Shown: positions 24,377-51,692, numbered from the stretch's first letter. The stretch is DNA of 64,000 nt from Candidatus Bathyarchaeota archaeon (GCA_963706285.1 CAVPLU010000013.1:96001-160000), one strand, 5' to 3'. The notes: generated by a model not told the origin, from the letters alone. A program made the numbers and translations.

Positions 24377-24597
24377 TGGTGGGGCCGAAGGGATTGTCAT
24401 GGCGTGCCGCCATTTTGAACCCTCGACTTCCGCCGTTTTTCTTCGTCTACGGGTTTCTCCCGCGCTCCGGAAGATCGTCATCCCACATGGTCAGCAAACC
24501 CGTTGCATGCCAAAGGCTTCTGGAGCCCTTAACGGGGGTTGTCCTGTCGTCATCCCTGGCTAGATTCCGCCGAACCTTGATCATCGCCTACGGCCCC
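24377..24597 (-). tRNA. tRNA-Trp(CCA) with five predicted introns (24565-24587, 24529-24545, 24455-24519, 24428-24446, 24394-24413)
   Basis: Removing the five segments gives a 77-nt cloverleaf ending CCA; each junction has a BHB/BHL-type 4-bp helix; anticodon at 24521-24523. Confidence 0.85.
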
Positions 24598-24648
24598 ACT
24601 GGACGACGACGCTCTGGCCCCACCGAGCTAGACTCGCACGCGAACAAC

Positions 24649-24657
24649 ATATTTAAT
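24649..24657 (-). promoter_or_regulatory. TATA box candidate for tRNA-Trp
   Basis: ATTAAATAT about 25 nt upstream of the leader repeat. Confidence 0.55.
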
Positions 24658-24798
24658 GTTTCACACAGAGCCGCGTTCTTGCGGCAATCCAACTCTAGAC
24701 GCCCGACAAGAAAAGCCATCGACCTTCGATGACTGCCTTGTGAAGAACAGGCTCGTAATCAGTTAGTTGCGACCGAGGGCCTCAGTCAAAGCGTAGAC

Positions 24799-25359
24799 CT
24801 ATACGGAGAAGACTCTCAACAAGTCTGCTTTCGTGATTATTCCCGCTACCTGCCCTCTCTTCACTACCACAACTGCCGAATGGTACTGTAAGAGAGTCGA
24901 AATCAGAGACAGCGGCGCCTTCTCGTCAATCTGAGGGAAAGCCTCAGCCATCACCTTAGAGACAGGCATACTTGAAAGTTCTCGCGGGCTAATCCCTGAT
25001 ATGAGTCGATCCATGATCACTTTCTCTGCGATGCTTCCGACAATATTTCGTCCACCAAAAACTGGCAGTTGAGAGAATCCGCTTTCCTTCATTATCGCTG
25101 CCGCTCTTGAGATAGAATCGTTCTCATCTACTCCAACAACCTTCGATTGCAGGAGATCCCTCGCATGCGGTTCCTTTTCCCTCTGCATCTTCTCCAACGT
25201 ATCAAAGATGGCTTTCGTCTTGAGATAGGATGGCTCAGTCTTTCCGGCCTCTATTTTCGCGATCATTGATTGGCTCACGCCGGCAAGCCGTGCAAGATGC
25301 TTCTGACTCAGCCCGACGATGCGTCTTCGCTTTGAGATCTCCTCAAGCCTTGGGAGCAT
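24799..25359 (-). CDS. HTH (XRE) + CBS domain transcription regulator
   Basis: LSQKHLARLAGVSQSMIAKIE; tandem CBS (GFSQLPV, GIITKADLL). Confidence 0.9.
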   Translation of the reverse strand: MLPRLEEISKRRRIVGLSQKHLARLAGVSQSMIAKIEAGKTEPSYLKTKAIFDTLEKMQREKEPHARDLLQSKVVGVDENDSISRAAAIMKESGFSQLPVFGGRNIVGSIAEKVIMDRLISGISPRELSSMPVSKVMAEAFPQIDEKAPLSLISTLLQYHSAVVVVKRGQVAGIITKADLLRVFSV

Positions 25360-25452
25360 GGACTCATCCGCCCTCGCAATATTCCTTCAGGAATATGTGG
25401 ATCAGAACTCTATTAATAGACGCTCTGGGTGTTGTGACCGCGAGGTTTCAGA

Positions 25453-25645
25453 ATGGCGAACATATCCGGCGGCGTGCTCAATCAGACTCCTGTGCAAGAT
25501 CAACCCATTGAGATATGCGAGAGAAAGGGGTTTGGCTATCCTGAAAGAAGTCTCCAAAAGCGTTCAAGAGCTCGCCGCTGCCGAACTCTCAAACATCAAC
25601 AAATTCAGCGAGGATCTTGCCTACGGGCGCATCCCAGTCTGCTGA
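25453..25645 (+). pseudogene. mat: Remnant of archaeal-type SAM synthetase with large internal deletion
   Basis: N-term MANI...NQTPVQDQPIEICERKGFGYP joined out of frame to C-term-like ELSNINKFSEDLAYGRIPVC*. Confidence 0.75.
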
Positions 25646-25741
25646 GACATAGCCGCTCACTTCCCAACATGTAGTGCCTGTTTCTCTACCCTGAGCCGGC
25701 CACCGCGCTGAATCCCAGCTTGTGAGGAGCTTCAGACAGGA

Positions 25742-26789
25742 TTGCTTTCAAGCCTGAAAGAAGAGGCTACATCAGCTTTCAGGAAAGTCGTAACAGCGCT
25801 CGTTCTGATTCTTTTGGCCTCCTACTTGATCTCGATGATCCTTGGCCCAATCCTCTTCTACACATCACGCGAGGGACTTGATGCTGCATCCAACCTGATC
25901 ACTAAGCTCCCACTAAGCCTGTTCATGATTGCTGACTTCTCGATTCCTATGGGAACCTACGTGGGCATATTCTTCTTCATGATTTGGATGCTCTTCGCTG
26001 CCGCATTTGTTTTGGCCTGGATTGATGCTCCGAGTTTCCCCATCTCGATCAAGAAAGTCACCCAACGAGTCAACGTAATCGGTTCAAACTACCTCATTGT
26101 TCTACCACAAGTGTCCACCATTGTGCTCGTCGCAATTGTGGTGCTTCAAGCGTTCCAGGAATCCGCAGGCGTCCAGACAGGCAGCATCTCTTTCGAGAAT
26201 CCAGTGATCGGTTTCCTGTCTGTCTCTTATGCTCCATTAGTGGAAGAGCTCAGCTACAGGATAACAACCCTGGGTCTTCTAGATGGGCTGTATCTTGTAT
26301 GGAGGACCCGGCACCAAGAACAGTACCAAGGCATCAAGGGTGCCGTCTACCTTCTAGCAGGTACAATGTGGAAACCGGACGGACCAAAGAGACTGTTAGG
26401 ATTCAAGACAATTCGAGACAACGGCTTGAAAGGAATCTCGCGGATCGAGTGGCTCATTCTGATTGCGACGTCAGGAGCTTTTGGAGCTGCTCACTATCTA
26501 TACGGGGGCGGATGGGAGATCGGCAAGGTTTCCACTGCGATGATATCGGGACTTGCGTTGGGCTACGTCTATCTACGCTATGGTGCATATGCTCCCATCT
26601 TGCTTCATTGGTACTTCAACTACTATTTTGGAACCTTTGATCTCGCTTCACAACTGAACATGCCCGAGCGCTGACCTGCTTGCTCTTGGTATAGAATTCT
26701 TGAATCTTGGCGGCGGAATCATCCTTGCATCAGGTTTGATTGTATCTTCCGTCGCCAGACTCTGGTCTGCCACGCGGCACAGGACCTAG
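25742..26789 (+). CDS. CPBP/CAAX family intramembrane protease (frameshift near 26670)
   Basis: APLVEELSYR, FGAAH, ILLHWYFN motifs. Confidence 0.85.
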
Positions 26790-27017
26790 ATTCGAAGAAG
26801 AACGCCAATGACCTTCCAAATATTCACGATTCGAACCCTGAAAGCCTACCATCGCAGGCGCCGGAGTGTATATCACCGCCAAGTTCATGTGCATTTGTAG
26901 GCTTTGCAGCAGACGGAACGATCCTATCAAGAGTGTATCTGCGGGAGAATCCTTGGCATGAAAACTGATACAAGAGCGATAAAACTCGATACTGAGAGAA
27001 ACGCCGGACATGATGAG

Positions 27018-29476
27018 ATGAGGCTTCCTCCTAGATATGAGCAGTCCACGCTTGAGGCGTCATGGCAGAAGAACTGGGAGCAGACTGGTATCTATCACTA
27101 TGACGCGAGCGACCGTTCGAGACCAACCTACTCGATCGACACGCCTCCACCTTACCCAAGCGGGGAATTTCATATGGGAAACGCTCTCAACTGGTGCTAT
27201 TTCGACTTCGTTGCCCGCTACAAACGAATGCGCGGATACAACGTCCATTTCCCTCAGGGGTGGGATTGCCATGGTCTTCCGACGGAGGTTAGGGCCGAAC
27301 GCACCTTCAACATCAAGAAACGAGACATATCGGTTGACAAATTCCGCGAGATTTGTGTGAAACTGACCACCGAGTATATCGAGAAAATGAAAACCGCGAT
27401 GCAGTCTATGGGATATTCAATCGACTGGAACCTTGAATACCGAACCATGGATCCCGAATACTATAAGCTGACGCAACTTTCGTTTCTACAACTCCTCAAA
27501 CGTGGACTCCTCTACAGAGGAGAACATCCAGTGAACTGGTGCCCAAGGTGTGAGACGGCAATCGCGGAGGCAGAGGTTGAATATGTCAGAAAGCAAAGGT
27601 ACCCTCCTCGACATTCCTCTTCTCCACACAAAAGGGCGACTTAGTCGTCGCAACCTCACGCCCAGAGTTCATTCCTGCCTGTGTGGCATTGGCGGTGAAC
27701 CCGACCGACACCCGTTACGCGGGATATGTTGGAAACGAAGCCGTGGTGCCTCTTGTGGATCGCAGGATTCCCATCCTGAAGGATGAGCTCGTTGACGTTA
27801 GTTTCGGCAGTGGCGTCGTGATGATATGTACGTTTGGCGATAAGACCGATGTCCGCTGGCAACACAAATATGCCCTTCCAGTTGTGAAACTCCTGGACGC
27901 GCAAGGGCGGTTAACGCAAGAAGCGGGAAAATATGCAGGACTCAAGATCCAAGAGGCACGGAAGGCAATCGTCGAGGACCTAAAGAATGCTTCAAAGATA
28001 GGTGGATCAAAACCAATTGAACGCGAGATAGGCACCTGCTGGAGATGCCACACTCCAGTCGAGATCCTGTCAGCTCCACAGTGGTTCATGAAGACCAAAG
28101 ATATGACGAACGAGATAGTCGAATGGACCAACAAAGTCACTTGGGTGCCAGATTTCTCCAAGAACAGGATGATAGAGTGGGCAAAGTCTCTCGACTGGGA
28201 CTGGGTAATTTCTAGGCAGAGACTGTTCGGAACCCCGATACCAGTTTGGTACTGTCGCAAGTGTGAGCAAATATTCGCTGGAAAAGAGGAATGGCTGCCC
28301 GTCGACCCACGCTCCCAGAAACCACCGGCAGGATCCTGCCCACACTGTGGATCAACCGAGTTCATCGGTGACCAAGATGTTATGGACACTTGGATGGACT
28401 CATCAATCACATGCGCCGTCCACGCTGGGTGGCCAGCAAAGGTTGATGAATTTCAGAGACTATTTCCCGCAGACCTCCAACCCAATGGTCTGGACATCAT
28501 ACGGACATGGGATTACTATCTGATGGCAAGACACCTTGCCCTATTTGGACAGGCACCGTACAAGACTGTCCTCGTAAACGGTATGGTTCGTGGCGCCGAC
28601 GGCAGAATGATGCACAAATCGTACGGCAACTACGTAGAAGTCACAGAGGCGATCATGAAGTATGGAGCAGACTCCGTCAGGCAATGGGCAGCGGCGGGGG
28701 GATCCACGGGCTACGACATCCCTTACAGATGGGCAGACGTTGAGTACGGCCGCAAGTTCCTGACAAAACTATGGAATGCTGCTCGGCTAATACTCTCTTC
28801 GCTCCAAGACTACGACTCCGCCCTCGCAGCTCCGAAGCTGGACTTGCTCGACAGATGGCTGTTAAGTAAACTCAACAACCTTATCAAGACCTCCACGGCC
28901 GCTTTTGAGAACTTCCAATTCAGCGTCGCCACAGAATCTACGAGAAACTTCATTTGGCATGATCTCTGTGACCAATATCTGGAAGCAGTGAAATACAGGC
29001 TATATGCCGAGCATTCCCCAGAGAGCGAAAACCGAAGAGCCGCTCAGTACACCCTATTCCAGACTCTGGAAGTTGTTCTGAGACTGCTCACCCCTATCTG
29101 CCCTCACGTCACGGACGCTCTTTATCATGAGCTCTGCCATGACCGGCCAAACGTTAGAAGCATCCACTCGGATGCCTGGCCCCTTGCAAATGATGAGCTC
29201 ATTGATCCGGAATCCGAAAGAAATGGATCGATCATTGTTCGAATACTCTCAGAAGTCCGTCGCTTGAAGTCAGAGAAACGACTCTCAATGAAGGCCCCCA
29301 TCAAGAGATTAACAGTCGAATCAACAGAAGAAGTGATGTGCGTACTCCGCGAACATGTAGACGCCATTTGTCAGATAGCCGTTGTCGAACAGGTTGAGAT
29401 CGTTCCCATCAAACGGCCAATGGATGATTTGCCCCCACAGAAGGACAACGACATCCGGCTCTCCGTACAATTCTAG
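27018..29476 (+). CDS. valS: Valine-tRNA ligase (two 1-nt frameshifts near 27588-27620)
   Basis: IDTPPPYPSG.FHMGN, GWDCHGLPTE, DWVISRQ, MHKSYGN. Confidence 0.95.
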
Positions 29477-29526
29477 GCGCGAAGTCTTTAATACATAATC
29501 TCAGTTTGTTAGGGCGGCGATCTTCC

Positions 29527-29814
29527 ATGAAGATAACTGAGCTAACACCGGGGATGAAAGGAGTCAATGTCGAGGGCAGAATTACGGAGAAGGGAGAACC
29601 CCGACAGGTCCAGACCAGATACGGCGAGAGTAGAGTAGCCGATGCTATCTTGACAGACGATTCTGGATCGATCAAGCTGTCTCTATGGAATGAGCAGATA
29701 GACAACTTCAAAATCAATGATGAAGTACGGATTGAGAATGGCTACATCACAAGCTTCAGAGGCGAAGCACAACTTTCCCCGGGAAGAACAGGGCGCCTTA
29801 CGCTAAAGCAATAG
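29527..29814 (+). CDS. ssb: Single-OB-fold ssDNA-binding protein
   Basis: MKITELTPG, D.SGSIKLSLW, IENGY..FRG. Confidence 0.85.
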   Translation: MKITELTPGMKGVNVEGRITEKGEPRQVQTRYGESRVADAILTDDSGSIKLSLWNEQIDNFKINDEVRIENGYITSFRGEAQLSPGRTGRLTLKQ

Positions 29815-29890
29815 TAGCAAGAGATAGCTTTCACGGCACCTAGCTAGCGCTCCGCGAATAACGGAGCCCCGGGTAGGAGTAATTTCTGAT

Positions 29891-30772
29891 ATGAGCGAAG
29901 ACGAGAGACTCGCCAAGATCAAAGATTTACTTGATTCTACGCTCGCTGAATTCGAGTCCGTCTTCAAGTCCGCAGGGACTTTTGATCAGTCGCGAGTGGG
30001 AAACGGTTGGACACCTTCAAACATTCGAATCCAGACGTATATGATCGACCCCATGTCATTTGATCAGGCTCGGAAGATTGCAGAATCGCGGAAAGCTAGA
30101 GCCTTTGGACCTTTTGGATGGCTACGAGTACGGCCTGGCCGAATGCACTTGATAGGTGAACCTACACTGGTCTTCTTTCCGTTTTGGCGTGTGAGGGGAT
30201 ATCACGAATGCTTCTACTTCCGAGGGAAGACGTACACGACGACTGTCCCAGATGATGTCATGGCCGTCCAAATGGGCGGGCGAATGCGAGCATTGACTTC
30301 ACAGCTCAAAGCTGAACGTTCTGTTATGGCTAGAGCAAGAAATGTGCTCAAGCGAACTCTGACGGCGCGAGCTGAGCCTAGATATTTCACAGTCGACGGC
30401 GCTATAGAACTTGCACGTCAATTCAGTGATGCATCGGTCATTGTCAACGGAGAGGGTAAGGAGGATGTTTCGATGGAGTACCTGCTTGAGAAAAAGCCAC
30501 AAATGCATCATATGGAGGAAGATCGCGAGCGAGGTGAACAGAAACCGGCTATCAAGTTCGCCCCGTTGGCTTTGCAGGCGGAAGATGTTGTGCGGGTTCT
30601 TCATGGCAGAGTGGTGAAACCACCACCTGTCTTCAACAAGATATTGACGAATAGGTTTGAGGTCACAGAACTTAGTCTTATTGAATTGCCAATCTATGTT
30701 TTCACATACAGGTATCTTGGCAGAGAGAAAGAACTCCGAATTCACGGGGTAACGGGCGAATTGCTGAGGTAG
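29891..30772 (+). CDS. Hypothetical protein
   Basis: 293-aa ORF, no family recognised. Confidence 0.65.
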   Translation: MSEDERLAKIKDLLDSTLAEFESVFKSAGTFDQSRVGNGWTPSNIRIQTYMIDPMSFDQARKIAESRKARAFGPFGWLRVRPGRMHLIGEPTLVFFPFWRVRGYHECFYFRGKTYTTTVPDDVMAVQMGGRMRALTSQLKAERSVMARARNVLKRTLTARAEPRYFTVDGAIELARQFSDASVIVNGEGKEDVSMEYLLEKKPQMHHMEEDRERGEQKPAIKFAPLALQAEDVVRVLHGRVVKPPPVFNKILTNRFEVTELSLIELPIYVFTYRYLGREKELRIHGVTGELLR

Positions 30773-32241
30773 CGCCAAATCGATGGGTGATTCGGGCGCC
30801 GTCTGAACGCGGATAGAGTCCGCTTCGTCTCAAGATACAGGCGTCGCCAGAATTTCGAAAGCAGCCATCTAGCCACAAGAAGCACAGCTGCGACTACAAT
30901 GACTATCTCGAGCAATGTGTAAGGTTCCGTGGCTACTTCAAGAAAGCTTGACCCTGAGTTGCCGTAGATATCCGTAGCCTCGACGTTCAGTCTCCAACTT
31001 CCAAGTCTTAGCAGATCGCCCCAAGAGAAGGCGTACTTGATTATCCAGACAGGGGTCGTTTTGTCATGAGTTACTGTCGCGTTCATCTTTGAGTCTGAAG
31101 CGTTCAACCAAGCTCGGACTGTTGCATTAGTGACTGTTGTGCCATCGGGGTAGGTGACTTCTGCATATGCCGTAAGTGTGTCGAACGGGACTTGGTAGCG
31201 GGTAGAATTCGAGACAGAACCTACCAAAAGCGTTGCAGGAGTCACGGTGAAGCTACTTGTCTCGACGTCCTTTCCTGGTCCAGTGTTCCCTTTCCCGTCG
31301 TCAAAGGCCTTGGCCAACATTAGGAACTTGTAGTTCACATCAAGTGATGCGTTCTGTGGGATTCTGTACTGAGCAGTCCAAATCCCACTCGTCGTCCCCG
31401 AGATTGCGAGGCTAAGATCTTCTGTTTTCAGCTGCCCTGCATACAACGCAACCGGTTTAAGGCCGCTCCTGACGCTAACAACTTCGGAAGAGTCAGGGTA
31501 TCGTATGATGAACTCGGCAGAGGCCGCCTGCGTTCTCTCGTAGGAGGTATGTGGCGCAACATTGACTGAAACATTCAGGAGTGCCGGGGTCACACTGAAC
31601 TTCGACAGAGAGACGAACTCTGCGTTTGGAGAATCATATGTCCCCACGCCATCTATGAAAACGGTGTAGGATTCAGGCATGGCGTCCGACGGAATCTTCC
31701 AAGTCGCAGCAAAAGTACCTGTTTGATTTGCTGCAATTGTTGTGTCATAGACGAAAGCTGCTGAGGGGTTTCGGATGGTAACCTTCAAACTAGCTTTGGG
31801 GAGGACACCGCCACCGACGGCCTTTACAATCTCCGTGCGTTGATATACGTACTTGTCAGTCCCCCATATTCCGTAGTGCGCACGAGCTATTGCAACATCC
31901 GATTTAGTTGAGTTGGAAATGCTGACCAAGTAGGTTCCTAGGGTAGCATTCGGTTCGATCGGCAACGAAATGGAAGGCGGGATCTGTCCCTTATCTGTCG
32001 CTGCAAATGTGAGGCCCGTTCCGCGAGTTGCGTTGTCGATTGGGCTCCGAAGCCACACTGCGTACGTTCCGTTTCGAACGAAACCGTCGCCTTGAAGCAG
32101 AACCTGCTTGTCGCGTAGCGTGTACAAAGGTTGGTCCGTTGTCAGAGAGGAGCGAGCCTGCGCCATGACAGGAAATGGAAAACATGTGACGATGACGACG
32201 GCGACTAGTGTCATGACCATTGCCATCGCTCTCAGTCTCAT
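30742..32241 (-). CDS. Secreted/membrane-anchored beta-rich protein
   Basis: Signal peptide, many N-x-S/T sequons, repeated YPD segments, C-terminal TM helix. Confidence 0.7.
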   Translation of the reverse strand: MRLRAMAMVMTLVAVVIVTCFPFPVMAQARSSLTTDQPLYTLRDKQVLLQGDGFVRNGTYAVWLRSPIDNATRGTGLTFAATDKGQIPPSISLPIEPNATLGTYLVSISNSTKSDVAIARAHYGIWGTDKYVYQRTEIVKAVGGGVLPKASLKVTIRNPSAAFVYDTTIAANQTGTFAATWKIPSDAMPESYTVFIDGVGTYDSPNAEFVSLSKFSVTPALLNVSVNVAPHTSYERTQAASAEFIIRYPDSSEVVSVRSGLKPVALYAGQLKTEDLSLAISGTTSGIWTAQYRIPQNASLDVNYKFLMLAKAFDDGKGNTGPGKDVETSSFTVTPATLLVGSVSNSTRYQVPFDTLTAYAEVTYPDGTTVTNATVRAWLNASDSKMNATVTHDKTTPVWIIKYAFSWGDLLRLGSWRLNVEATDIYGNSGSSFLEVATEPYTLLEIVIVVAAVLLVARWLLSKFWRRLYLETKRTLSAFRRRPNHPSIWRYLSNSPVTP

Positions 32242-32553: not shown

Positions 32554-32675
32554 TGGCGCCGGGAGAGGGATTTGAACCCTCGCGGCCCCAAAGGACCACA
32601 GGCTTTGTGTCCTCGATTCCAGGCCTTGGCTCCTCAAGTTGGGATCTGCCCCGTACCAGGCTCGGGAATCCCGGC
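32554..32675 (-). tRNA. tRNA-Ser(GGA) with two predicted introns (32625-32645 at 29/30; about 32605-32616 in the anticodon loop)
   Basis: GCCGGGA/TCCCGGC G CCA acceptor, long variable arm, GGTTCAAATCC. Confidence 0.82.
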
Positions 32676-32769
32676 GTCGATCAACCGTAGATGTTCGACA
32701 CCGACCAGTAGCTACTGAACCGTCATAAAGATTCTCATGAAAGCACAACTCACCCGAGGCTGCGAGTGT

Positions 32770-35081: not shown

Positions 35082-35082
35082 C

Positions 35083-41521: not shown

Positions 41522-41522
41522 C

Positions 41523-42074: not shown

Positions 42075-42084
42075 CTCTTGTCAT

Positions 42085-42797: not shown

Positions 42798-42799
42798 CT

Positions 42800-43556: not shown

Positions 43557-43559
43557 TCC

Positions 43560-43953: not shown

Positions 43954-43959
43954 TACTTT

Positions 43960-44397: not shown

Positions 44398-44464
44398 ATC
44401 ATGTCACTTTGGATTTTCGGCAAAGAGCGAACTATTCTTCTTTAATGTTTTGATAGTGTCGCGC

Positions 44465-44800
44465 CTAAGCACTTAGAAGGACCTTCTCGATTGCCACAAA
44501 TGTGACTTCTTTGCTGACTGGTCGACATTCCATTATTCTCACGCGGTCGCCGTCTTTCAATTCTAAGCAGGGCGGGTTGTGCGCGAGAATCCTGCTGCGA
44601 CGACGTTCGTAGCGCATGTATTTCTTTGCGTAGTGCAGGTGTCCCCTCTCGACTGTGACAGTGCCGCTCATCTTCGTGCTCACAACCGTCCCATCGAGCA
44701 TCTTTCCTCTTACTGGAAGAGTGCCGTGGAACGGACAGTTCGGATCTTCACAGGGCTTCTGAGGTCGTTTTACTCCGATTCCTATTTCTCGCATCACCAT
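44465..44800 (-). CDS. rps17: 30S ribosomal protein S17
   Basis: CEDPNCPFHG, KYMRYERR, ECRPVSK. Confidence 0.96.
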   Translation of the reverse strand: MVMREIGIGVKRPQKPCEDPNCPFHGTLPVRGKMLDGTVVSTKMSGTVTVERGHLHYAKKYMRYERRRSRILAHNPPCLELKDGDRVRIMECRPVSKEVTFVAIEKVLLSA

Positions 44801-45076
44801 TTCCTCCCTCTTGCCTTCATCCTGTTTTCAGGTCTCCCGACAAGCTTGGCTCCTTCAACTTCCACAATGGAACCATCAGGCAAATCAAACCTGAATACCG
44901 CGATCTCCTTTCGGGATCATCTTCACGCCTTCCCTCGTGCTTAGCTTGACAGTGTTCCTCGTCTCATCGACGATTCGCCCACGAGTGCCCACGATCAGAG
45001 CATTCGAACTTCGCGCAACAATTGTCTTCAATCCAATCAGCTCGTGTCTCAAGATATTCTCTGGTCTGATCGGCAT
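44794..45076 (-). CDS. rnp1: RNase P protein Rpp29 (frameshift near 44910)
   Basis: ENILRHELIGL, GRIVDETRN, ...GRPENR. Confidence 0.9.
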
Positions 45077-45291
45077 TACTCCTTCACGGGCGACTTGGTC
45101 GCCTTGGTCTCCATGGTGAGAAGTCTTGCAATTGTCTTTCGCAATTCTCTGATCCGTGCTGGGTTCTCGATTCGGCCCCCAGATTCGACTGTGGTACGCA
45201 TCTTGGCAAGCTCGATTCTAAGCTCCCTGAGCTTCTTATGCCGCTCATCTGGCAGAAGCTGAGCTCTCTCACGCTTTCGCAGTATCGGCAT
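45076..45291 (-). CDS. rpl29: 50S ribosomal protein L29
   Basis: MPILR, ENPARIRELRKTIARLLT. Confidence 0.94.
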   Translation of the reverse strand: MPILRKRERAQLLPDERHKKLRELRIELAKMRTTVESGGRIENPARIRELRKTIARLLTMETKATKSPVKE

Positions 45292-45955
45292 CTTCCTCTG
45301 TCTCCTCGCTCTTTTCTTCGGTTTCGGCTGCGGTTTCCTTTGGAGGTTCGGGTGCCTCGCCCGGAGTTCTCAGCTCAGGCTTGTCTGGGAACCGTGCTCC
45401 TGGTGGAAGGATTCGCACGGTTATACCAAATAGTCCCTGCTTCAACTGGATGTCAACCACTGCCCTCTTGACTTGCTTGAGCACGGGGTCCCCGACGCTT
45501 GGGAGGTAACCGTCCTTGAATTTCTCATATCTGGCGCGCTCGGTGGTCAATTTTCCACGGATTGCAACGTCAACTCCGAGCGCTCCTGCGCCCATCGCTC
45601 TTTGAAGTGCCCAGTAGGCGGCTCTCCTGAAGTGGATGCCGCGCTGCAAGGCGGAGGCGATTTGAGAACCAACAACCATAGGATCCAGGTCGGGGACTTC
45701 AATGGCCGCGACGGATACCTGTGGATTCTCCATTCCAAATGTCTGTTCAAAGACCTGGGTAAGATCACGAATGCTCTGACCGCGTCTTCCTATTACCATG
45801 CCCGGCTTCGCAGCGTAGATAACAACTCTCGTTCCGAGCGGGGTCTTGGTCATCTCCACTTTGCTATAGCCGGCTTTCTTGAGCTCACCGGCTAGGTAGG
45901 AGTCAATCTCGGCTTTTTTCATATTGTCACGTACAAAGTACTTGCTGACTGACAT
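45269..45955 (-). CDS. rps3: 30S ribosomal protein S3
   Basis: TPLGTRV, PGMVIGRRG, FRRA, GKL..ERAR. Confidence 0.96.
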   Translation of the reverse strand: MSVSKYFVRDNMKKAEIDSYLAGELKKAGYSKVEMTKTPLGTRVVIYAAKPGMVIGRRGQSIRDLTQVFEQTFGMENPQVSVAAIEVPDLDPMVVGSQIASALQRGIHFRRAAYWALQRAMGAGALGVDVAIRGKLTTERARYEKFKDGYLPSVGDPVLKQVKRAVVDIQLKQGLFGITVRILPPGARFPDKPELRTPGEAPEPPKETAAETEEKSEETEEDADTAKA

Positions 45956-46419
45956 CACGCTTGTGCCTCGTATCCGATCAGTTCGATATGGGTGAGAGTG
46001 TTGAAGGATGGGCTTGATCTGCCAAAGGCCCGTGGGACATAGTTCCTCGTCTTCATGCCTCGTTGACTTGCTGCGTGAATTATCCTGAGTCTGTCAACGT
46101 CTAGGCCTTTGTATTCGGCGTTCGATTGCAGTTCCTCCAGCAGTCCGAGGATCCTGGTAGCAGCTTTGGCCGGATACCGGCCTGCATGCCACCGTTCTTG
46201 GCTCTTGTGAGGTACTTCTGTCTTGTAGCGTCGATACGGGATCGGTCGTTTCTTGGAGACGACATCTTCGAGAAGCCGCTTCGCATCATCCAGTCGCATG
46301 CCTCTAATTGTGCAGCAGATTTCTGTTGCGGCTTTGGGCGAGATGCGGAGCTCGCGCCCTGAACACCTCACAGACCGTTCTGGGTCCATCTCCTTTACTG
46401 AATACGCCCAGTTTGGCAT
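45955..46419 (-). CDS. rpl22: 50S ribosomal protein L22
   Basis: ISPK, GRYPAKAA, NAEYKGLD, PRAFGR. Confidence 0.96.
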   Translation of the reverse strand: MPNWAYSVKEMDPERSVRCSGRELRISPKAATEICCTIRGMRLDDAKRLLEDVVSKKRPIPYRRYKTEVPHKSQERWHAGRYPAKAATRILGLLEELQSNAEYKGLDVDRLRIIHAASQRGMKTRNYVPRAFGRSSPSFNTLTHIELIGYEAQA

Positions 46420-46519
46420 GCTCTTCTCCGCCAGTATCTCCGAACGCATGGACGGAGCACCATAAAAACCAATGCCTTTCCCGCAGTCCTAGGAATTGAT
46501 TGAGCAATGACACGTCTTC

Positions 46520-47032
46520 GTGAGCAACGATTATTACGTCTGCTCTTCACCATCGAATTTGTTCATCACGGTGAGACACAGTTTGGCTTCTGGAAGGGAA
46601 GATCAACGAGCGATCGAAGCGGAGCTGAAGGGAACCACGCTCCGAGTCTACTGGGAAGTATTCAAATCGCCAAAGCCGGTAGGCGTCAGAGAGGTGCAGC
46701 GCCTAATCCATTTTTCTAGCCCCAGTACTGCACTCTATCATCTGGAGAAGCTCCGTGAACTCGGAGTAGTGAGAAAGGACGAGTACGGCCATTACGAGCC
46801 TCTCGAAGAAATCCAGCCCAGCCAGTTTCGCATGTTTCTTCGCATCGGCCGCGTCATCTTGCCCAGGTACGTTTTCTACGCGGTATTCTTTGTGGCAGCT
46901 GTCGTGATGTACATTGTGCAGTCGCTTCTCGCAGGCTCGGATGTGAGCGTGATGGCTCTGATCTTTGGATTTAGCGCCGCGCTGGTCTGCACCTATGAAG
47001 CGGTTAGGATTTGGAGGGACAAGATGATATGA
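46520..47032 (+). CDS. Winged-HTH protein with C-terminal TM helices (start uncertain)
   Basis: LKGTTLRVY, GVREVQR...SSPSTALYHLEKL, two TM helices. Confidence 0.78.
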   Translation: MSNDYYVCSSPSNLFITVRHSLASGREDQRAIEAELKGTTLRVYWEVFKSPKPVGVREVQRLIHFSSPSTALYHLEKLRELGVVRKDEYGHYEPLEEIQPSQFRMFLRIGRVILPRYVFYAVFFVAAVVMYIVQSLLAGSDVSVMALIFGFSAALVCTYEAVRIWRDKMI

Positions 47033-47111
47033 GCTCGGTGGGAATTTTCGACTTGTTCCAAACTCTAGATTTAATTTGCGAACGCTACCCGAGAGACAGA
47101 GGGCATTAAGT

Positions 47112-47378
47112 TTGAGGAAAGAACTATCACTCGCAATCATCGCGATAGTATTGGCGCTCATCGCTGTGCAAAGCGCGAGCCTCCTGCAGAATCCCTCAGC
47201 TGCGGCACTAGTGAAGGGCGCATCAGTGCCCGAGACGAGTCCTGTGTCCGAGACAAGTGCCCGTCTGCAGATAGATCAATCGACCTATCTCTCATTGAAT
47301 CAGACTGTCTCGTGGGTGGTCCTAGGTCCACTTGCAATAGCCGCGCTATGTTACATTCTTGTCAGGAGAAGGATGTAG
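47112..47378 (+). CDS. Small hypothetical membrane protein
   Basis: N- and C-terminal hydrophobic helices, basic tail. Confidence 0.55.
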   Translation: MRKELSLAIIAIVLALIAVQSASLLQNPSAAALVKGASVPETSPVSETSARLQIDQSTYLSLNQTVSWVVLGPLAIAALCYILVRRRM

Positions 47379-47448
47379 TCACCTGATGGCAACATAAACG
47401 CGAATTGCTGACGCGTGATGCCCCCTGAACTGTGGGGCAATCCCAAGT

Positions 47449-47841
47449 CTACTTCAGAGGAACATACATTGAGCTTCTAGACGCGCCGATGCCTGGTGTT
47501 CCATGAACCACTTTCTTGTTTGTGATAACGAACTCTCCAAGGTAATGGCCAACCATCTCAGGTCTGATAGCGAGAGAGCTGAATTCTTTGCCGCTATGGA
47601 CGAGCAGAGTCTTTCCAACCATTTCTGGAAGGATGATCATGTCCCTGCAGTGGGTCTTGATCGGTTTGGCTGCTTCTCTCCCGGATATACGTATCTGTTC
47701 AAGGAGTAGCCTCTGCTGGTCCGTGAGCCCCTTCGTGAGCGATCGTCTTTGGCGAGCTGGAAGCAGCTTGATGAACTCGTCCATGGACATCTGCTGAAGG
47801 TCATTGATCGTGTGTCCACGATACGTAAACTCTTTCGGCAT
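47449..47841 (-). CDS. rps19: 30S ribosomal protein S19
   Basis: [28 protein letters not shown]. Confidence 0.96.
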
Positions 47842-47897
47842 TACTTGATCACTTCTCTGAACCTGCTCGACATTGATTAACCAAGACAAAAGAGTTT

Positions 47898-48167
47898 CTA
47901 GAGAATGCCCAACCTAACGGCTAGGTCTGAGGCCTTGTAGTCTGAGGCAAGCTTGACGTAGGCTTTCTTTCGCCCCTCTGGGGTCACAACAGAATTCACG
48001 CGATCAACTCTCACTTCGTATAGTTCTTCAACAGCTCGGCGTATGTCATTCTTAGATGCATCAGCGTCGACAATGAAGGTGATTTTGTTCTCAGCTTCGA
48101 TCAAAGTGACTGCATCCTCGGAGACCAGCGGATATTTGATCACTTCTTGAATGCTCTTTACTGGCAT
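47898..48167 (-). CDS. rpl23: 50S ribosomal protein L23
   Basis: [18 protein letters not shown]. Confidence 0.95.
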
Positions 48168-48168
48168 G

Positions 48169-48960
48169 CTAGTTCCCCTGCGCAGCGAATCGGTTCTCAA
48201 CGAATTCTAAAGCGGACTTTGTCCAGACTGTGAGCCTTCCAGCATGAGTGCCAGGAGCAAGATCCTCGACGTTCAGATTCGATACCTCAACGATATCGAC
48301 GCCGGTCAGGTTGCGAGCTGCTTTCCCAATCCCTTCATCTTTCAATACGACGAGCAATGGACCTCGCGGATGTTTGATTCGTCTACCTCTCACGCGTCCT
48401 CTGCCTGCACGTATCTTTGCACCGCTGCGTGCCCTCGTGACATCATCCCAGAGGCCAAGTTCTTCGAAAGCCTTCCTAGCCTCCGTCGTGGTCTTCAACT
48501 TCTGGAATTCGTCTGAGACCACCAATGGGATACTAGGTACCTTCTTGAATTCGTGGCCCCTGGACGCGACGAGATCTTTGGAGGCTGTTGCGGCTATGGC
48601 TGACCAAAGAGCCAGAAGGCGCTCCTTCTTGTTGATGCGCTTCGCGAGTCTTCGCTGTGGCGACGGTGCATGAGTCAAGCGGCCTTTGACGGTCATGGGT
48701 GCGAAAGCGGCTCTATTTGCGCCCTTGATCCTCGGAACTCGAGCGAGGTCTTTGCCGACCCCAACAGACTCGGCAGTCGTTCGCTTTCCAGCCATCGGGT
48801 TCCTGCCCTGTGGTTGGTATGTTCTGCTGTGAAGAGCGACAACGACTTTCTGTATCACGTCTGGGCGGAACGGTGCTGAGAAAACGGAGGGCAAACCAAT
48901 GTTTTCATGGGGTTTGCCGCTGATATCGTAGATTTCTATGTTCTTGGAAGGAGATGTCAA
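48169..48960 (-). CDS. rpl4: 50S ribosomal protein L4
   Basis: [26 protein letters not shown]. Confidence 0.96.
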
Positions 48961-48963
48961 GGC

Positions 48964-49966
48964 TTAGCGCCCCTGAACGGATTCTAGGCTTAGGTAATCG
49001 AACGTGGGTGGAGGCGCATCTGTGCCTCTGGCTCCACGCCGGAGAGTTATCGCTCTCCTTGCCGGGCCAGGGACAGTGCCGTTTATCATTACGTATTCAG
49101 CTTTGATTTCTCCGTATCTGATGAATCCTCCCTTCGGCGTCACGTCCTTGCCCTCCTGCCCGATCTTGACCACTTGCTTGTTGTACTCGGTCCTCTGATG
49201 GAAACCCATCTGCCCTGCGCGTGGAACTGAATACATGACATAGTGAGGAGTCCATCCTCCAATCGAGCCGACCTGCCTAACCGTCTTTCTTGCCTTGTGA
49301 AACTTGCGACGAATTCCAAATCGTTTCACTGGCCCTTGAATCCCTTTACCCTTAGTTACCCCGATCACGTCTAGCCAGTCGCCTTCCTTGAAGGTGTCAG
49401 AGATCTTGACCTCCTTCCCAAGTTGATTTCGGGCATACTCGAATTGCTCTCTTGGCGTCGCAGCCGCCCAGTTTCACTTCGAGGAGTTCAGGCGTCTTCC
49501 TGCCGAGGCGGACTATCTTAGGCTGGGTTGCTAGCAGTATTCTGATCTCGCTGAGCTTTTCAAGTGAAGACTCTATTTTCGTCAGCCTTTCGCCGTGATT
49601 GATAGATTCTGGCAAGGACAGAAGACGCATCAATTCCTTCTGCGGTTTCTCCATCCAAGCCTCGCCAAGCGTCTGAAGCCCTTTCGGAGTCTTCACGTAG
49701 GCTCTCAGCGCCACTGCAACCATCGGTGGTGTCTCGACGATCGTGATTGGAAACGAAATCTCCTTTCCAAATGTGAGAGAGCCTTCTCTATTGTCAACCC
49801 CAACGGCGGTTCTCATCCCCGCCTTGTACCCAACAAATGCCAACGGCTTCGCCTCTTTGATGCCGGTCGGCCAGTATCTTACATGCCCGATCCAGCTGGA
49901 GGCTCTCGCTCTCGGAAGGTATGCAAGTGAACCTCGTCTTGGAGCAGAAACTTTCCTGTGTCCCAT
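48964..49966 (-). CDS. rpl3: 50S ribosomal protein L3 (frameshifts near 49400-49460)
   Basis: PRRGSL, GYKAGM, TKGKG.QGPVKR, GQMGFHQRTEYNK. Confidence 0.96.
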
Positions 49967-49976
49967 GTCAGCTCAC

Positions 49977-50862
49977 CTATCCGCTAATTGTATTCAAGAA
50001 TGCAAGAGCCGAGTAGACCGCTTCTTCAGTTCGGACGCTCTGCGTTCCTTGATCTGGAACAAAGTTCACAGTGAATGCTGCAACCGTGCTGAGTTTCATG
50101 ACCCTCTTGTGCGATGATCTCATGAAGTCCTCGTTTCGGGGAGCCGAATGCAAGGAGTACACTGGAAGCTCCCGTTATCGATGTCCTCAATTGCTCAAGC
50201 ACTGCGTCCACTTTCTCTCCGAGTCTTGACGTGGCGATAACCACGTCCGGCCCGCTCTCTTGAATGAACCTCCCCAGAGGAAGGTTCTTCAACGTAACCC
50301 GGAAGCCCCAATATATGTCTATCCGGCTGTGATCGATCAACTCAGCGACGATCTTCGGAGCCACTCTGTTGATCCGAACAGACACACGAGATCCACGATC
50401 GAGTCTTGCAGGGATTTCCGCGAGCGATCCAACTCCGATGTCAACCCGACTAATTTGCGCGTTCACCTCCGTCACCACTCCCTCTCTGAGGTCGCCGACC
50501 TTCAAATCGGATGGTCTGGGAGAGACTGGATGATTAGGAGTGCGAAGAGGCGGGAGAATCCCCGCGAAACGCAACTCAGGATTCATTCGCACCAGATGCT
50601 TTCTCAAGTGTTGGGGCGTTTCCATGTAGCTAAGCACTGAGTCAATGAAGTGTCCTTGACTTGCTGATTCACCAGCCGGTAGGTCGGCGTAGATCACAAC
50701 TTCGTCGACTCTGAAGATTCCGAGCGCCCGCCCAAGGAAACCGAGCCGACTCGTCTTTTCCCGGAGGTGAGGGATGTCGGCGACGAATGAACATGGAACC
50801 GCCACCGTGAGCTTCCATCGTCTCTTAAGAGGAGGAGCGTACGCCTGCCCGAGCGCGTTCAT
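49977..50862 (-). CDS. SPOUT RNA methyltransferase, DUF171 family (frameshift near 50090)
   Basis: IFRVDEV, ETPQHLRK, GILPPLRTPNH, QGTQSVRTEEA. Confidence 0.88.
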
Positions 50863-50952
50863 ATCTGAAGTACCGAGTCAAGAGAATGAAGGTTGGACTG
50901 ATGTACTTTGCTTGTCTCGGGACTAGTAGGGTGCTCGAAATCCAGATCGGGT

Positions 50953-51396
50953 TCAGAGATCAAGGATATACCGGGCGACGTACCCTTTCCGAGCAGCGCT
51001 TACTTCCATTCGATGATAGGTGACCGCCTTTATCTCAACCTTCGCAGGATGGCGACCCCTCACGAAGATGCCTCCCTGTGCCTCCGCGACAAGGCGCACA
51101 TTTTCGTTCTGTTCCTCGATCTTCTCTACATGAAACTTCGAATAGACTTTTCCATCTAGGTCAAACTTCAGCAGGAGCTGCTCAAGCCAATCGTGAAGGA
51201 GAGAGACCCGATCATGAGCAGTCACCTCAAACTGATCTGTGAATTCGGACTTGATCGCGGTCGGATCGGTCATAACATCGAACATTGCAAACGCAGACTC
51301 CTCAAAAACGGCAGCAAGCGTCGGCGCATGCACTTCGACATACGCATCAGTCATGTGTGGTAGAAGCTTGTGTCGTGAACGCCCCTGCTTTGGCAT
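50953..51396 (-). CDS. Archease (RtcB RNA ligase cofactor)
   Basis: PHMTDA, EIKAVTYH, C-terminal ILDL. Confidence 0.92.
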   Translation of the reverse strand: MPKQGRSRHKLLPHMTDAYVEVHAPTLAAVFEESAFAMFDVMTDPTAIKSEFTDQFEVTAHDRVSLLHDWLEQLLLKFDLDGKVYSKFHVEKIEEQNENVRLVAEAQGGIFVRGRHPAKVEIKAVTYHRMEVSAARKGYVARYILDL

Positions 51397-51534
51397 GAGA
51401 TCTTCGACATGACAACCGTATTCGGACGTAAATGCGTTCTTGCGCGCCTCACTTGTCAACTCGGACAGTTTCCGTCGGCAAAGTCTTTTAGATGACTCGG
51501 TCTCGATACAGATCTTGTGGTGCCGGGAACACCT

Positions 51535-51692
51535 GCCGGGATATGAGTGATAGTCTCGCATCCCGAAGGCCGAGTGGATTAACGACCCATGGTGGTCGGT
51601 CTATAGGCGCAGGCCTTGAGTCCGCAAAATGCCGGTCTGGAGAGCCTGTGGCCCTTTGGGCCTCGGGGGTTCGAATCCCTCTCCCGGCGCCA
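51535..51692 (+). tRNA. tRNA-Ser(TGA) with three predicted introns (51543-51567, 51582-51604, 51621-51642)
   Basis: Spliced GCCGGGATGGCCGAGTGGATTAAGGCGCAGGCCTTGAGAGCCTG...GGTTCGAATCCCTCTCCCGGCGCCA; BHB helices CGGG/CCCG, GGAT/GTCT, CTTG/CTGG. Confidence 0.88.

Follow-up and report, generated by a model that had tools for sequence, protein, structure and literature searches.

How can an intron be excised from beside the acceptor stem of a tRNA when the helix of its BHB motif draws on the very bases that build that stem? The question is raised by two genes, tRNA-Ser(TGA) and tRNA-Trp(CCA), in a 64,000-nt stretch of a Candidatus Bathyarchaeota archaeon (GCA_963706285.1 CAVPLU010000013.1:96001-160000; the window), both of which carry a copy of the 5' acceptor strand in the leader. 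ARAGORN run on the raw window calls zero tRNAs, so that the annotation by hand in an earlier note on this DNA was needed, and it proved correct. The Ser-TGA locus has the following features.

51486-51493, plus strand: TATA-like box TTTTAGAT, a putative promoter element starting 32 nt 5' of the leader copy and 49 nt 5' of G1
51518-51528, plus strand: leader copy TGGTGCCGGGA, TGGT and then GCCGGGA, complement of the 3' acceptor strand, G73 and CCA
51529-51534, plus strand: 6-nt spacer from leader copy to G1
51535-51692, plus strand: tRNA-Ser(TGA) gene, with three introns and an encoded CCA
51535, plus strand: G1
51535-51541, plus strand: true 5' acceptor strand GCCGGGA
51537-51540, plus strand: C3-G6 (CGGG), 5' half of the central helix of the intron 1 BHB
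51542, plus strand: U8
51543-51567, plus strand: intron 1, 25 nt, between positions 8 and 9
51562-51565, plus strand: CCCG of intron 1, complement of C3-G6 and 3' half of the central helix
51568, plus strand: G9
51682-51692, plus strand: 3' end TCCCGGCGCCA, TCCCGGC, G73 and CCA, partner common to the leader copy and the true 5' strand

The leader copy lies exactly where the earlier note had placed it and pairs with the 3' end over 11 contiguous base pairs, one of them U.G, in a duplex of -23.3 kcal/mol; shuffling the 60-nt leader 2000 times at constant composition never gave this length. The complementarity between CGGG at positions 3-6 and CCCG in an 8/9 intron, also claimed there, is present, and ARAGORN calls tRNA-Ser(tga) after in-silico removal of the 25-nt intron after U8 together with two more BHB-like introns. 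By sequence, A7-U8-A and A-A-G9 could form the bulges, flanked by an outer helix of 2 bp (G1-C2 paired to G10-C11) and by an inner helix that is imperfect; RNAfold, by contrast, pairs straight through the bulge, and the motif is probably a relaxed form. The promoter scan chose a box one base later than the one given above (score 5.9).

At the Trp locus, which lies on the opposite strand, the corresponding features are these.

24650-24657, minus strand: TATA-like box ATTAAATA, a candidate promoter element 33 nt 5' of the leader copy and 60 nt 5' of G1 (scan score 5.6)
24616-24624, minus strand: leader copy GGTGGGGCC, GGT and then GGGGCC, complement of G67-C72, A73, C74 and C75 (9 bp)
24377-24597, minus strand: tRNA-Trp(CCA) gene, with five introns (after positions 10, 29, 38, 46 and 60) and an encoded CCA
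24597, minus strand: G1
24593-24590, minus strand: C5-U8 (CCGU)
24588, minus strand: G10
24565-24587, minus strand: intron 1, 23 nt, between positions 10 and 11
24570-24567, minus strand: GCGG of intron 1, complement of C5-U8
24377-24387, minus strand: 3' end CGGCCCCACCA, CGGCCCC, A73 and CCA

Here too the copy and its nine contiguous pairs with the 3' end (-23.1 kcal/mol; shuffle fraction 0.009) were found at the positions claimed, as was the complementarity of positions 5-8 to the GCGG of the 10/11 intron, and the solver recovered a Trp-CCA cloverleaf once the five introns had been removed in silico. A third gene in the window serves as an internal control.

32554-32675, minus strand: tRNA-Ser(GGA), with an acceptor stem identical to that of Ser-TGA, a first intron not before about position 31 and no leader copy

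The best leader match of Ser-GGA is merely 7 bp long, rich in G.U pairs and worth -12.5 kcal/mol, which bears out its proposed use as a gene with the same stem, no early intron and no copy. Gln-TTG and Gln-CTG form a second such pair with a common acceptor stem, and in both pairs the copy occurs only in the intron-bearing member.

Extending the comparison to our own census of 45 tRNA genes in this genome, we scored a strong leader duplex where a leader segment paired with the 3' acceptor strand at -16 kcal/mol or below (RNAduplex), and we set 10 genes with a first intron after position 3-10 (the early class, in four of which that position was read by eye and then checked with ARAGORN) against the other 35. 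The earlier note had proposed asking whether leader complementarity co-occurs with introns up to about position 12, and it does, in 8 of the 10 early-intron genes versus one gene in the remaining 35 (p=1.8e-6 by one-sided Fisher test, p=7e-5 by Mann-Whitney), in the orthologs of three tRNAs and in a second genome, although the link is not strict and has exceptions in both directions. The eight early-intron genes with a copy are Pro-GGG, Cys, Ser-TGA, Asn, Met-CAT_b, Arg-CCG, Gln-TTG and Trp, and their copies correspond to eight distinct acceptor sequences. Among the controls, the region from -120 to -61 gave a strong duplex in 1 of 45 genes, the 60 nt downstream held a complement of the 3' end at the same threshold in 0 of 44 genes tested, and 67 of 1858 mismatched leader/target pairs passed. 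A 4-bp central helix of the BHB (exon bases 3-6 nt 5' of the 5' splice site with intron bases 3-6 nt 5' of the 3' splice site) can form in Ser-TGA, Trp, Pro-GGG, Met-CAT_b, Arg-CCG, Phe and Gln-TTG, with just three of the four pairs in Cys and Asn; splicing in silico yielded cloverleaves (solver, ARAGORN) for Trp-CCA, Ser-TGA, Asn-GTT, Gln-TTG and Gly-CCC.

The exceptions are Phe-GAA, which has an 8/9 intron without a transcribed copy and a predicted BHB probability of 0.00, and Gly-TCC, which in three genomes of the genus carries TGCGGCC abutting G1 and only a 15/16 intron in the D-loop. The occurrence of a leader copy beside acceptor-proximal introns is a general observation; the copy is neither necessary for such introns (Phe-GAA and the Ser-TGA orthologs of two genera lack it) nor exclusive to them (Gly-TCC and the Trp gene of one family).

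These observations are further supported by orthologs sought in 60 relatives of the same order, which are not independent of one another, so that the following counts overstate the number of evolutionary events: for Ser-TGA a strong duplex was found in 13 of the 19 loci that have the 8/9 intron and in 0 of the 10 that lack it, and for Arg-CCG in 12 of the 12 that have the 9/10 intron and in 0 of the 10 that lack it; for Trp a copy was found in 19 of the 19 loci that have the 10/11 intron and in 2 of the 8 that lack it. Six Ser-TGA orthologs (five in genus g2, one in g3) have kept the intron with a degenerate match or none, and these are predicted to retain the native stem; the Trp genes of family f5 (L038 and L039) possess a 9-10-bp copy with a D-loop intron only. 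Within the genus the Ser-TGA copy, (T)GGTGCCGGGAAC, is kept in 8 of 8 loci (the present genome and seven relatives) while its flanks vary, and across 12 orthologs the spacer is constant in length and variable in sequence, a thirteenth having no spacer. Ortholog copies are retained despite changing spacer length and flanks, and across at least four families. In an AT-rich genome of another family (42 parsed tRNA genes), the three strongest duplexes (-19.9, -18.3 and -12.2 kcal/mol) belong to the three genes whose intron follows position 8 or 10, the remaining 39 genes all lying at -11.1 or above.

What is conserved in these copies is pairing with the 3' strand rather than identity with the true 5' strand, the only differences between copy and strand being C to U opposite G (Pro-GGG in this genome; GGGGCTG, GGGGTCG and GGGGTTT in Trp orthologs) or A to G opposite U72 (Gln-TTG). 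The base 5' of the copy pairs with N73 in 8 of 9 copy-bearing genes, and before the Ser-TGA copy one genus has U and two other families have C, either of which pairs with G73.

Promoter spacing suggests that the copies are transcribed. In Ser-TGA, Asn, Trp and Met_b a TATA-like box starts 29-33 nt 5' of the copy, and likewise in Gly-TCC, which has a copy and no early intron; where ordinary genes show a clear box, it starts 29-38 nt 5' of G1. This spacing therefore predicts transcription to start at the 5' edge of the copy, with the proviso that the automatic promoter scan was noisy in 4 of 9 copy-bearing genes. The genome also encodes a full-length archaeal RNase P RNA (183.7 bits) and two endonuclease paralogs (tRNA_int_endo), and with these present such leaders are expected to be made and later removed.

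Folding predictions tie the leader to the choice between the two helices. With its native leader present, the native acceptor stem had a probability of 0.00 in 8 of 8 genes at 37 C, and without the leader 0.81-1.00 in seven genes and 0.02 in Arg-CCG. Adding the leader raised the predicted BHB central helix from 0.00 to 0.97 in Pro, 0.99 in Ser-TGA, 0.81 in Met_b and 0.51 in Gln, with 0.56 for Trp at 70 C, so the model predicts a splice helix enabled by the leader in about five of the eight genes; shuffled leaders had no such effect on predicted folding, and Ser-TGA orthologs of four families show the same predicted flip. For Cys, Asn and Arg-CCG folding does not predict the assigned central helix; bulges of 3 nt stabilised by protein lie outside what the energy model can represent. 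The switch proposed in the earlier note, in which the leader holds the 3' strand and frees the true 5' strand for the BHB, is in this way partly reproduced: the modelled ensembles lose the native stem in every gene but gain the central helix in only some. In duplex energies, the 3' strand binds the leader copy at -16.4 to -23.9 kcal/mol versus -14.5 to -17.7 for the true strand, and the leader duplex is at least as stable in 7 of 8 genes (Pro-GGG being the exception; Ser-TGA -23.3 versus -15.8). One strand has two partners of comparable stability, and the predicted ensemble flips with the leader. In Ser-TGA, Asn and Trp the leader duplex beats the native stem by 6-7.5 kcal/mol, and release after splicing therefore needs a further factor, such as tertiary folding, RNase P capture or a helicase.

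A plausible decoy mechanism follows this course. For an intron after positions 7-10, the BHB would need bases 2-8 of the true 5' strand to pair with the 3' part of the intron, and this would therefore exclude the native 7-bp acceptor stem, itself far stabler than the 4-bp helix. The leader copy would offer the 3' acceptor strand an alternative partner that binds it at least as stably (through 7 bp and the discriminator base, in some genes also CC(A)), so that the pre-tRNA retains a closed tRNA-like frame from which the true 5' strand and intron 1 project as an extra hairpin arm presenting the BHB to the splicing endonuclease. After excision of the intron, the true strand would be left without an alternative partner and could displace the leader by branch migration, and a normal RNase P substrate would exist only from then on. 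We consider it rather probable that the copy is a transcribed, cis-acting competitor strand that lets the BHB form. Complementarity, linkage to introns, conservation and the predicted flip all point to it, and the reading supposes transcription of the leader, an endonuclease that depends on this conformer and later steps that run in the order given.

A different emphasis would make the leader/3'-end helix mainly a gate on end processing, keeping RNase P, 3'-end enzymes and aminoacyl-tRNA synthetase off the unspliced precursor and opening after splicing; it is compatible with the competitor reading and differs solely in which effect is selected. The reach of the copy into the discriminator base and CCA region in Ser-TGA, Asn and Trp, beyond the need of a 7-bp stem, would suit such a gate, as would the RNase P RNA and the copies on Gly-TCC and f5 Trp, genes without an acceptor-proximal intron but with other introns. 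A general gate on unspliced precursors would not, however, favour introns at 7-10, and 33 of the 34 other intron-containing genes of this genome (first intron at 15 or later) have no such leader, while the extension beyond the stem is absent in Cys and only 1 bp long in five other genes, so we regard the gate as unlikely to be the main role. That the copy arose as a DNA-level by-product of intron origin or upkeep, by local duplication or gene conversion and with no RNA role, is suggested by its being a direct repeat of the adjacent 5' strand, 0-18 nt away, and by decayed-looking versions (GGCGGGTT in the leader of Ser-TGA in g2, and the leaders of Trp in L045 and L046). We hold this to be quite improbable, because the extension complementary to N73 and CC(A) lies outside the repeated strand, every difference from the true strand is a transition that keeps the pairing, the promoter box stands at its usual distance from the copy and not from G1, and a neutral 7-nt repeat is not expected to last through at least four families while spacer and flanks diverged.

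The arrangement is also formally symmetrical, either copy being able to pair with the 3' strand or with the 3' segment of the intron, and the promoter spacing suits the upstream copy as a 5' end; the upstream copy might accordingly be the real 5' exon, and the downstream strand, spacer and 'intron 1' one longer intron. This is very improbable: the base after the upstream copy is A, C or G and never the near-universal U8, and that copy is imperfect in several genes (no G7 in Trp, C6 to U in Pro-GGG, G for A1 of A1-U72 in Gln), whereas the downstream strand matches by Watson-Crick pairs throughout in 8 of 8 genes, always leads into U8 and a normal position 9, and on splicing gives cloverleaves accepted by solver and ARAGORN. 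Chance resemblance among G+C-rich leaders finds some footing in mononucleotide shuffles of single leaders, 5-10% of which attain a helix as long as the one observed (Arg-CCG, Cys, Gln-TTG), and in the 3.6% of mismatched pairs over threshold, but against the joint pattern of the census and its replication in orthologs and in an AT-rich genome with background leaders of -0.2 to -11, we give it a negligible probability.

We found no published description of this leader-copy arrangement in the searchable open literature. Known archaeal BHB tRNA introns resemble those described here in their 4-bp central exon-intron helix and multiple introns per gene, and two endonuclease paralogs are present here as well; as far as the available portions of the published accounts extend, these cover intron sites and the cutting enzymes, with no leader-encoded second acceptor copy and no device that resolves the conflict between BHB and acceptor stem. 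Split (trans-spliced) tRNAs are described from Nanoarchaeum equitans, Caldivirga and Desulfurococcales, and permuted tRNAs from Thermofilum pendens and red algae (PMC4090602, PMC4033280, PMC3218864). In the parts of these papers available, the likeness is that a G+C-rich leader outside the mature tRNA pairs elsewhere in the precursor so that an endonuclease substrate can form, and that a longer leader is betrayed by unusual promoter-to-tRNA spacing (PMC3218864). According to the same parts, complementary leader and trailer there build the BHB, the endonuclease cuts them off and the gene is in pieces or permuted, whereas here the leader pairs with the mature 3' strand over an uninterrupted 8-11 bp, and it is the true 5' strand and the intron that make up the BHB, at another site. 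We rejected a split or permuted tRNA since the genes are colinear from leader to CCA, and extensions of that type forming a BHB since the helix runs on without a bulge as far as the mature 3' terminus. A pre-rRNA-type processing stem (a flanking inverted repeat with BHB) was likewise rejected, the 3' partner being the mature acceptor strand and NCCA and not a trailer, in line with the 0 of 44 downstream regions.

Mutually exclusive helices act as RNA switches in transcription attenuators, riboswitch expression platforms and toehold strand displacement. The present case is alike in that the 3' acceptor strand has two partners, the choice would decide whether the BHB forms and intron excision is the proposed irreversible reset; it is unlike them in having no ligand, ribosome or polymerase pausing, and an element of a pre-tRNA leader would control RNA processing and not gene expression. 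Leader-trailer pairing hinders RNase P in eukaryotic and bacterial pre-tRNAs, where a 5' leader paired to the 3' end region similarly affects the order of end processing, but that pairing is short, involves the trailer instead of a full acceptor-strand copy and is independent of intron position.

Somewhat more tentatively, and a little short of an even chance in our judgment, the arrangement may represent a strand-exchange switch in tRNA maturation conserved across the order, in which the primary transcript opens with the leader stand-in, this closes the frame and leaves the real strand and intron 1 to project as an arm bearing the splice signal, excision of intron 1 triggers takeover by the real strand, and RNase P can act only afterwards. 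If this is true, the order of maturation would be fixed, with splicing ahead of 5' maturation, and the persistence of introns at sites where the BHB and the acceptor stem are mutually exclusive would be explained.

Introns next to the acceptor stem pose a known structural problem, as the splice motif and the tRNA's most stable helix need the same bases. The earlier note had proposed that two tRNA genes of the window answer it with a leader copy, a segment upstream of G1 that repeats the 5' acceptor strand and is complementary to the 3' strand, and the features concerned are as follows.

Features of the window
24597-24377, minus strand: tRNA-Trp, first intron after position 10
24624-24616, minus strand: Trp leader copy, GGTGGGGCC, 18 nt upstream of G1 (from the sequence)
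32554-32675, minus strand: tRNA-Ser(GGA), a multi-intron gene
51535-51692, plus strand: tRNA-Ser(TGA), first intron after position 8
51518-51528, plus strand: Ser-TGA leader copy, the 11-mer TGGTGCCGGGA, 6 nt upstream of G1 (from the sequence)
51682-51692, plus strand: Ser-TGA 3' end, TCCCGGCGCCA, the last 11 encoded bases (from the sequence)
225-545, minus strand: archaeal SRP RNA (Rfam, 161 bits)
22008-22129, minus strand: stand-alone 5S rRNA (Rfam, 81 bits)

The leader complementarity described in the earlier note is present in both genes, with the Ser-TGA copy complementary to the 3' end over the 11-mer (one U.G pair) and the Trp copy complementary to GGCCCCACC within the tRNA-Trp 3' end. 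Its placement of the first-intron bulge-helix-bulge (BHB) motifs on acceptor-strand bases also held, as C3-G6 pair with intron CCCG in Ser-TGA and C5-U8 with intron GCGG in Trp. Because the 4-bp BHB central helix uses these bases, it excludes the native acceptor stem in both genes.

Standard tools were blind to these genes, with ARAGORN detecting none of the three multi-intron tRNA genes in the window and an Rfam search at gathering thresholds returning no tRNA there, only the SRP RNA and 5S rRNA, and the genes were therefore parsed by other means. Under standard annotation the window would carry no tRNAs, despite its three multi-intron genes. Removing BHB-like introns in silico recovered a Trp-CCA cloverleaf with five introns, and ARAGORN accepts the Ser(tga) tRNA once its introns are so removed. 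The Trp intron after position 38 (65 nt; window about 24430-24560, minus strand) holds a CTGA box and one GGATGACGA box, with a second GGATGACGA box further upstream in the D-loop. These boxes resemble the box C/D guide RNA of archaeal Trp introns in the available text of PMC4090602, and an Rfam search of the Trp region gave zero matches, the box C/D-like intron included. In the Ser-GGA gene about 54 nt separate an upstream TATA-like box from G1, which makes for a long leader (window 32676-32735, minus strand); within it, GGTGTCG is weakly complementary to the 3' end (G.U-rich, -12.5 kcal/mol) and is possibly a decayed copy.

Genome-wide (2.13 Mb in 21 contigs, 89% complete, 7.5% contamination estimate), ARAGORN with its intron option missed or mis-called most tRNA genes, and Rfam marked 16 tRNA places at its default threshold and 31 at E <= 10, against 45 census genes. 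Given this poor recovery, we built our own census, which combined a search for a T-arm plus 7-bp acceptor pairing (interrupted T-loops and relaxed T-stems allowed) with an nhmmer profile of spliced tRNAs, a BHB-splicing solver and inspection of leftovers by hand. It comprises 45 unique genes, nearly all with one to five introns and most encoding CCA; no Asp-GTC or Glu-TTC gene was among them. Ten of the 45 are early-intron genes (first intron after position 3-10), the position coming from the solver in six and from reading by eye with an ARAGORN check in four. We dropped near-identical duplicates, flanks included, of two contig C4 genes, Met-CAT and Thr-GGT (C20:1503-1613 and C20:9022-9127), which fit strain mixture within the assembly given its contamination estimate, along with an Ala-like gene whose stem is mismatched (C10:86177), two class-II 3' fragments (C4:81084 and C5:14499), three tRNA-3'-like repeats (on C9, C10 and C16) and an ARAGORN-only call resembling coding sequence (C13:35285).

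Some of these elements merit description in their own right. The class-II fragments (G000:C4:81084-81117 region, minus strand, and C5:14300-14536, plus strand, G000 being the genome under study), one Leu-CAG-like and one Ser-like, are both preceded by the same ~60-nt element starting CCCTCATTCCC and could be integration-site remnants or 3' halves of split tRNAs. The repeats resemble a T-arm plus 3' end, GACGGTTCAAATCCGG..CGCACCA, followed by a CACACACA run with no 5' half nearby (G000:C9:4112-4142, C10:52541-52565 and C16:58077-58107, all minus strand). The initiator tRNA-Met (G000:C4 about 386100-386260, minus strand), which also has T-loop and anticodon-loop introns, carries an intron within its 3' acceptor strand at positions 71/72 (CCCCGC, then 30 nt, then TACCA), and the central helix of that intron would use C66-C69. 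Its leader GTGCGGAG is complementary at 7 of 8 positions to the 3' strand plus intron start; we set this aside as chance, since such a pairing would compete with the gene's own BHB. Seven genes do not encode CCA, unlike most (Leu-TAA, Leu-TAG, Leu-CAA, Ser-GCT, Ser-CGA, His and Met-CAT_b), their tails reading ACTT, GCTT, GCCT, CCTC or ATCA, and T74 of Met-CAT_b faces an A in the leader.

To every census gene we assigned the best duplex between its 60-nt leader and an 11-mer covering the 3' strand, N73 and the three bases beyond it, and the energies were bimodal across the 45 genes. Strong duplexes (-16.4 to -23.9 kcal/mol) were found in eight of the ten early-intron genes, listed here with the positions between which the first intron lies.

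Early-intron genes with a strong leader duplex
Pro-GGG, intron 7/8
Cys, intron 8/9
Ser-TGA, intron 8/9
Asn, intron 8/9
Met-CAT_b, intron 9/10
Arg-CCG, intron 9/10
Gln-TTG, intron 10/11
Trp, intron 10/11

The other two early-intron genes reached -9.4 (Phe-GAA) and -7.2 (Gly-CCC), and among the remaining 35 genes only Gly-TCC, at -16.4, was comparable, the runner-up being at -14.2. Complementarity thus co-occurs with early introns, the association that the earlier note had put forward as a check (8/10 versus 1/35; Fisher's exact p=1.8e-6, Mann-Whitney p=7e-5). Control regions rarely passed the threshold of -16 kcal/mol, with 1 of 45 genes doing so at -120..-61, none of 44 in the downstream 60 nt, and 67 of 1858 mismatched leader/target pairs. 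Gene pairs with the same stem agree: Ser-GGA, which the earlier note offered as an internal control, has the stem GCCGGGA/TCCCGGC in common with Ser-TGA, and only the early-intron Ser-TGA has the copy; Gln-TTG and Gln-CTG share AGCCCGG/CCGGGCT, and only the early-intron Gln-TTG has it. Gly-CCC (G000:C13:56558-56728, plus strand, outside the window), with a 48-nt intron after position 3, follows a different plan from the leader-copy genes, in that leader GGT, exon GCG (bases 1-3) and intron start GTCG together supply 10 nt complementary to the 3' end CGGCCGCACC. The 3' end of this intron, CACT, mimics the 3' terminus CACC.

What the copies preserve is pairing rather than identity. The eight copies correspond to eight different acceptor stems, and where a copy departs from the true strand (the 5' acceptor strand of the mature tRNA), as at C6->U in Pro-GGG and A1->G opposite U72 in Gln-TTG, pairing with the 3' strand is kept. 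In eight of nine copy-bearing genes the discriminator has a pairing partner in the base preceding the copy, and the Ser-TGA, Asn and Trp copies extend pairing to C74-C75 (Ser also to A76); as this segment lies outside the repeated strand, simple duplication does not explain it. The leader duplex is at least as stable as the true-strand duplex in 7 of 8 genes. The leader helix exceeds the native stem in stability by 6-7.5 kcal/mol in Ser-TGA, Asn and Trp, so that a release step needs explaining. An origin as a target-site duplication or att site was rejected, since the repeats would enclose an "element" of just 0-18 nt.

Evaluating the Ser-TGA, Trp and Arg-CCG loci further, we searched 60 genomes of the same order and parsed the matches, which revealed that the copy tracks the early intron in all three sets of orthologs, with exceptions. 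Strong duplexes (-17.8 to -23.4) occurred in 13 of 19 parsed Ser-TGA loci with the 8/9 intron and in none of 10 without it (-5.7 to -12.9), counts that, like those for the other loci, serve as replication among non-independent kin rather than as a statistical test. The 13 are all eight loci of the genus (our own and seven relatives) and five from three other families; the six lacking a strong duplex belong to genera g2 (five) and g3 (one). Opposite G73 the genus has U, and families f5 and f6 have C, two different ways of retaining the pair. Arg-CCG has the copy in all 12 loci with the 9/10 intron (-17.5 to -20.8) and in 0 of 10 without, and Trp has it in all 19 loci with the 10/11 intron (15 of 18 scored loci at or below -16). 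The Trp copies read GGGGCC(G), GGGGCTG, GGGGTCG or GGGGTTT, every change being C->U opposite G. Among eight Trp loci lacking the 10/11 intron, two (family f5) have a 9-10-bp copy and two more (f6) an apparently decayed one. Across lineages the copy persists while spacers (0-19 nt) and flanks vary.

In an AT-rich, 100% complete genome of another family (G051), we started from all 42 Infernal places, retrieved 40 of these along with the Trp locus, and parsed 42 genes. The three strongest leader duplexes were those of its three genes with an intron after position 8 or 10 (-19.9, -18.3 and -12.2, the last a partial copy, GCCCCA), and the other 39 genes scored at least -11.1. When 121 genomes of the phylum were scanned with a pattern for the Trp arrangement, 22 matched. 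The seven loci inspected beyond the order, from 7 of the 19 other matching genomes, had no D-arm following the pattern and resemble chance matches in G+C-rich DNA; with the outside-order sample being those seven, tRNA-linked matches were found only in this order's G000, G043 and G051.

Folding predictions have the leader displace the native acceptor stem. With the native leader present, the predicted probability of the native stem was 0.00 in all eight genes; with it absent, 0.81-1.00 in seven and 0.02 in Arg-CCG. Adding the leader raised the predicted BHB central helix at 37 C from 0.00 to 0.97 in Pro-GGG, 0.99 in Ser-TGA, 0.81 in Met-CAT_b and 0.51 in Gln-TTG, and in Trp from 0.00 to 0.56 at 70 C, and shuffled leaders mostly left the native stem unaffected. 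In Cys, Asn and Arg-CCG the leader is still predicted to capture the 3' strand, the true strand pairing differently and the central helix not being predicted. Copy-bearing Ser-TGA orthologs from four families show the same predicted flip, and the g2/g3 orthologs lacking the copy are predicted to remain in the native stem. The predicted minimum-energy fold of Ser-TGA is closed by the leader helix; the true strand and intron 1 make up a hairpin of their own, placed between the leader helix and the D arm.

Putative promoter positions follow the copy. Ser-TGA, Asn, Trp, Met-CAT_b and Gly-TCC each have an upstream TATA-like box whose start lies 29-33 nt from the copy; in ordinary genes whose boxes are clear, the corresponding distance to G1 is 29-38 nt. 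The automatic scan is noisy, so these positions come from high-scoring boxes and readings by eye, taken as indicative, with the by-eye boxes relied on for the remaining four copy-bearing genes, where the automatic pick differs. From this spacing we infer that the leader copy is probably expressed. Unusual promoter spacing likewise served to spot atypical tRNA genes in the available text of Chan et al. (PMC3218864). The genome also carries a full-length archaeal RNase P RNA and two endonuclease paralogs (G000:C12:149004-149243 and C6:75200-75433), which fit the two-subunit type that, according to the accessible portion of PMC6379350, cuts non-canonical introns.

The explanation best supported by these observations, and one we hold to be probable, is a somewhat sharpened form of the decoy proposed in the earlier note. 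The leader copy would take the 3' acceptor strand and leave the true 5' strand free to form the BHB with the intron, and its N73/CC(A) extension would tip the balance toward the leader-paired conformer. Excision of the intron would then remove the true strand's alternative partner, and the true strand could therefore displace the leader. Exceptions in both directions count against this explanation, namely introns without a copy (Phe-GAA and the g2/g3 Ser-TGA orthologs) and copies without an acceptor-proximal intron (the f5 Trp genes, and Gly-TCC in three genomes of the genus). The central helix that the modeling leaves unpredicted in 3 of 8 genes weighs against it as well, as does the stronger leader helix of Ser-TGA, Asn and Trp, whose release would have to be accounted for.

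It is possible, at a distinctly lower probability, that the leader helix also, or instead, acts as a gate on RNase P and 3'-end enzymes. That the copy is a neutral by-product of DNA-level events is improbable, as the segment pairing with N73/CC(A) is absent from the repeated strand, and it is more doubtful still that the upstream copy is the true exon, given that no U8 follows the copy and its pairs are imperfect. Least credible of all is a chance match between leader and 3' end, which we regard as negligible. These last three alternatives all fit the data poorly.

The accessible parts of the open full-text literature describe neither a leader copy of the acceptor strand nor a device resolving the conflict between BHB and acceptor stem, and the copy is likewise not described in the available text of PMC4090602, PMC4033280, PMC3218864, PMC3728597 and PMC6379350. 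The closest known systems are split and permuted tRNAs, which differ in that, as far as the available accounts go, their complementary leaders themselves build the BHB. Priority is thus provisional, and an earlier description may exist in older papers or supplements. For annotation, a leader copy together with a shifted promoter is a strong signal of hidden multi-intron tRNAs. If the decoy explanation is true, a competitor strand encoded in the leader would be a simple, genetically encoded solution to the conflict between BHB and acceptor stem, and would give pre-tRNA leaders a new role and RNA processing a natural case of strand-displacement logic.
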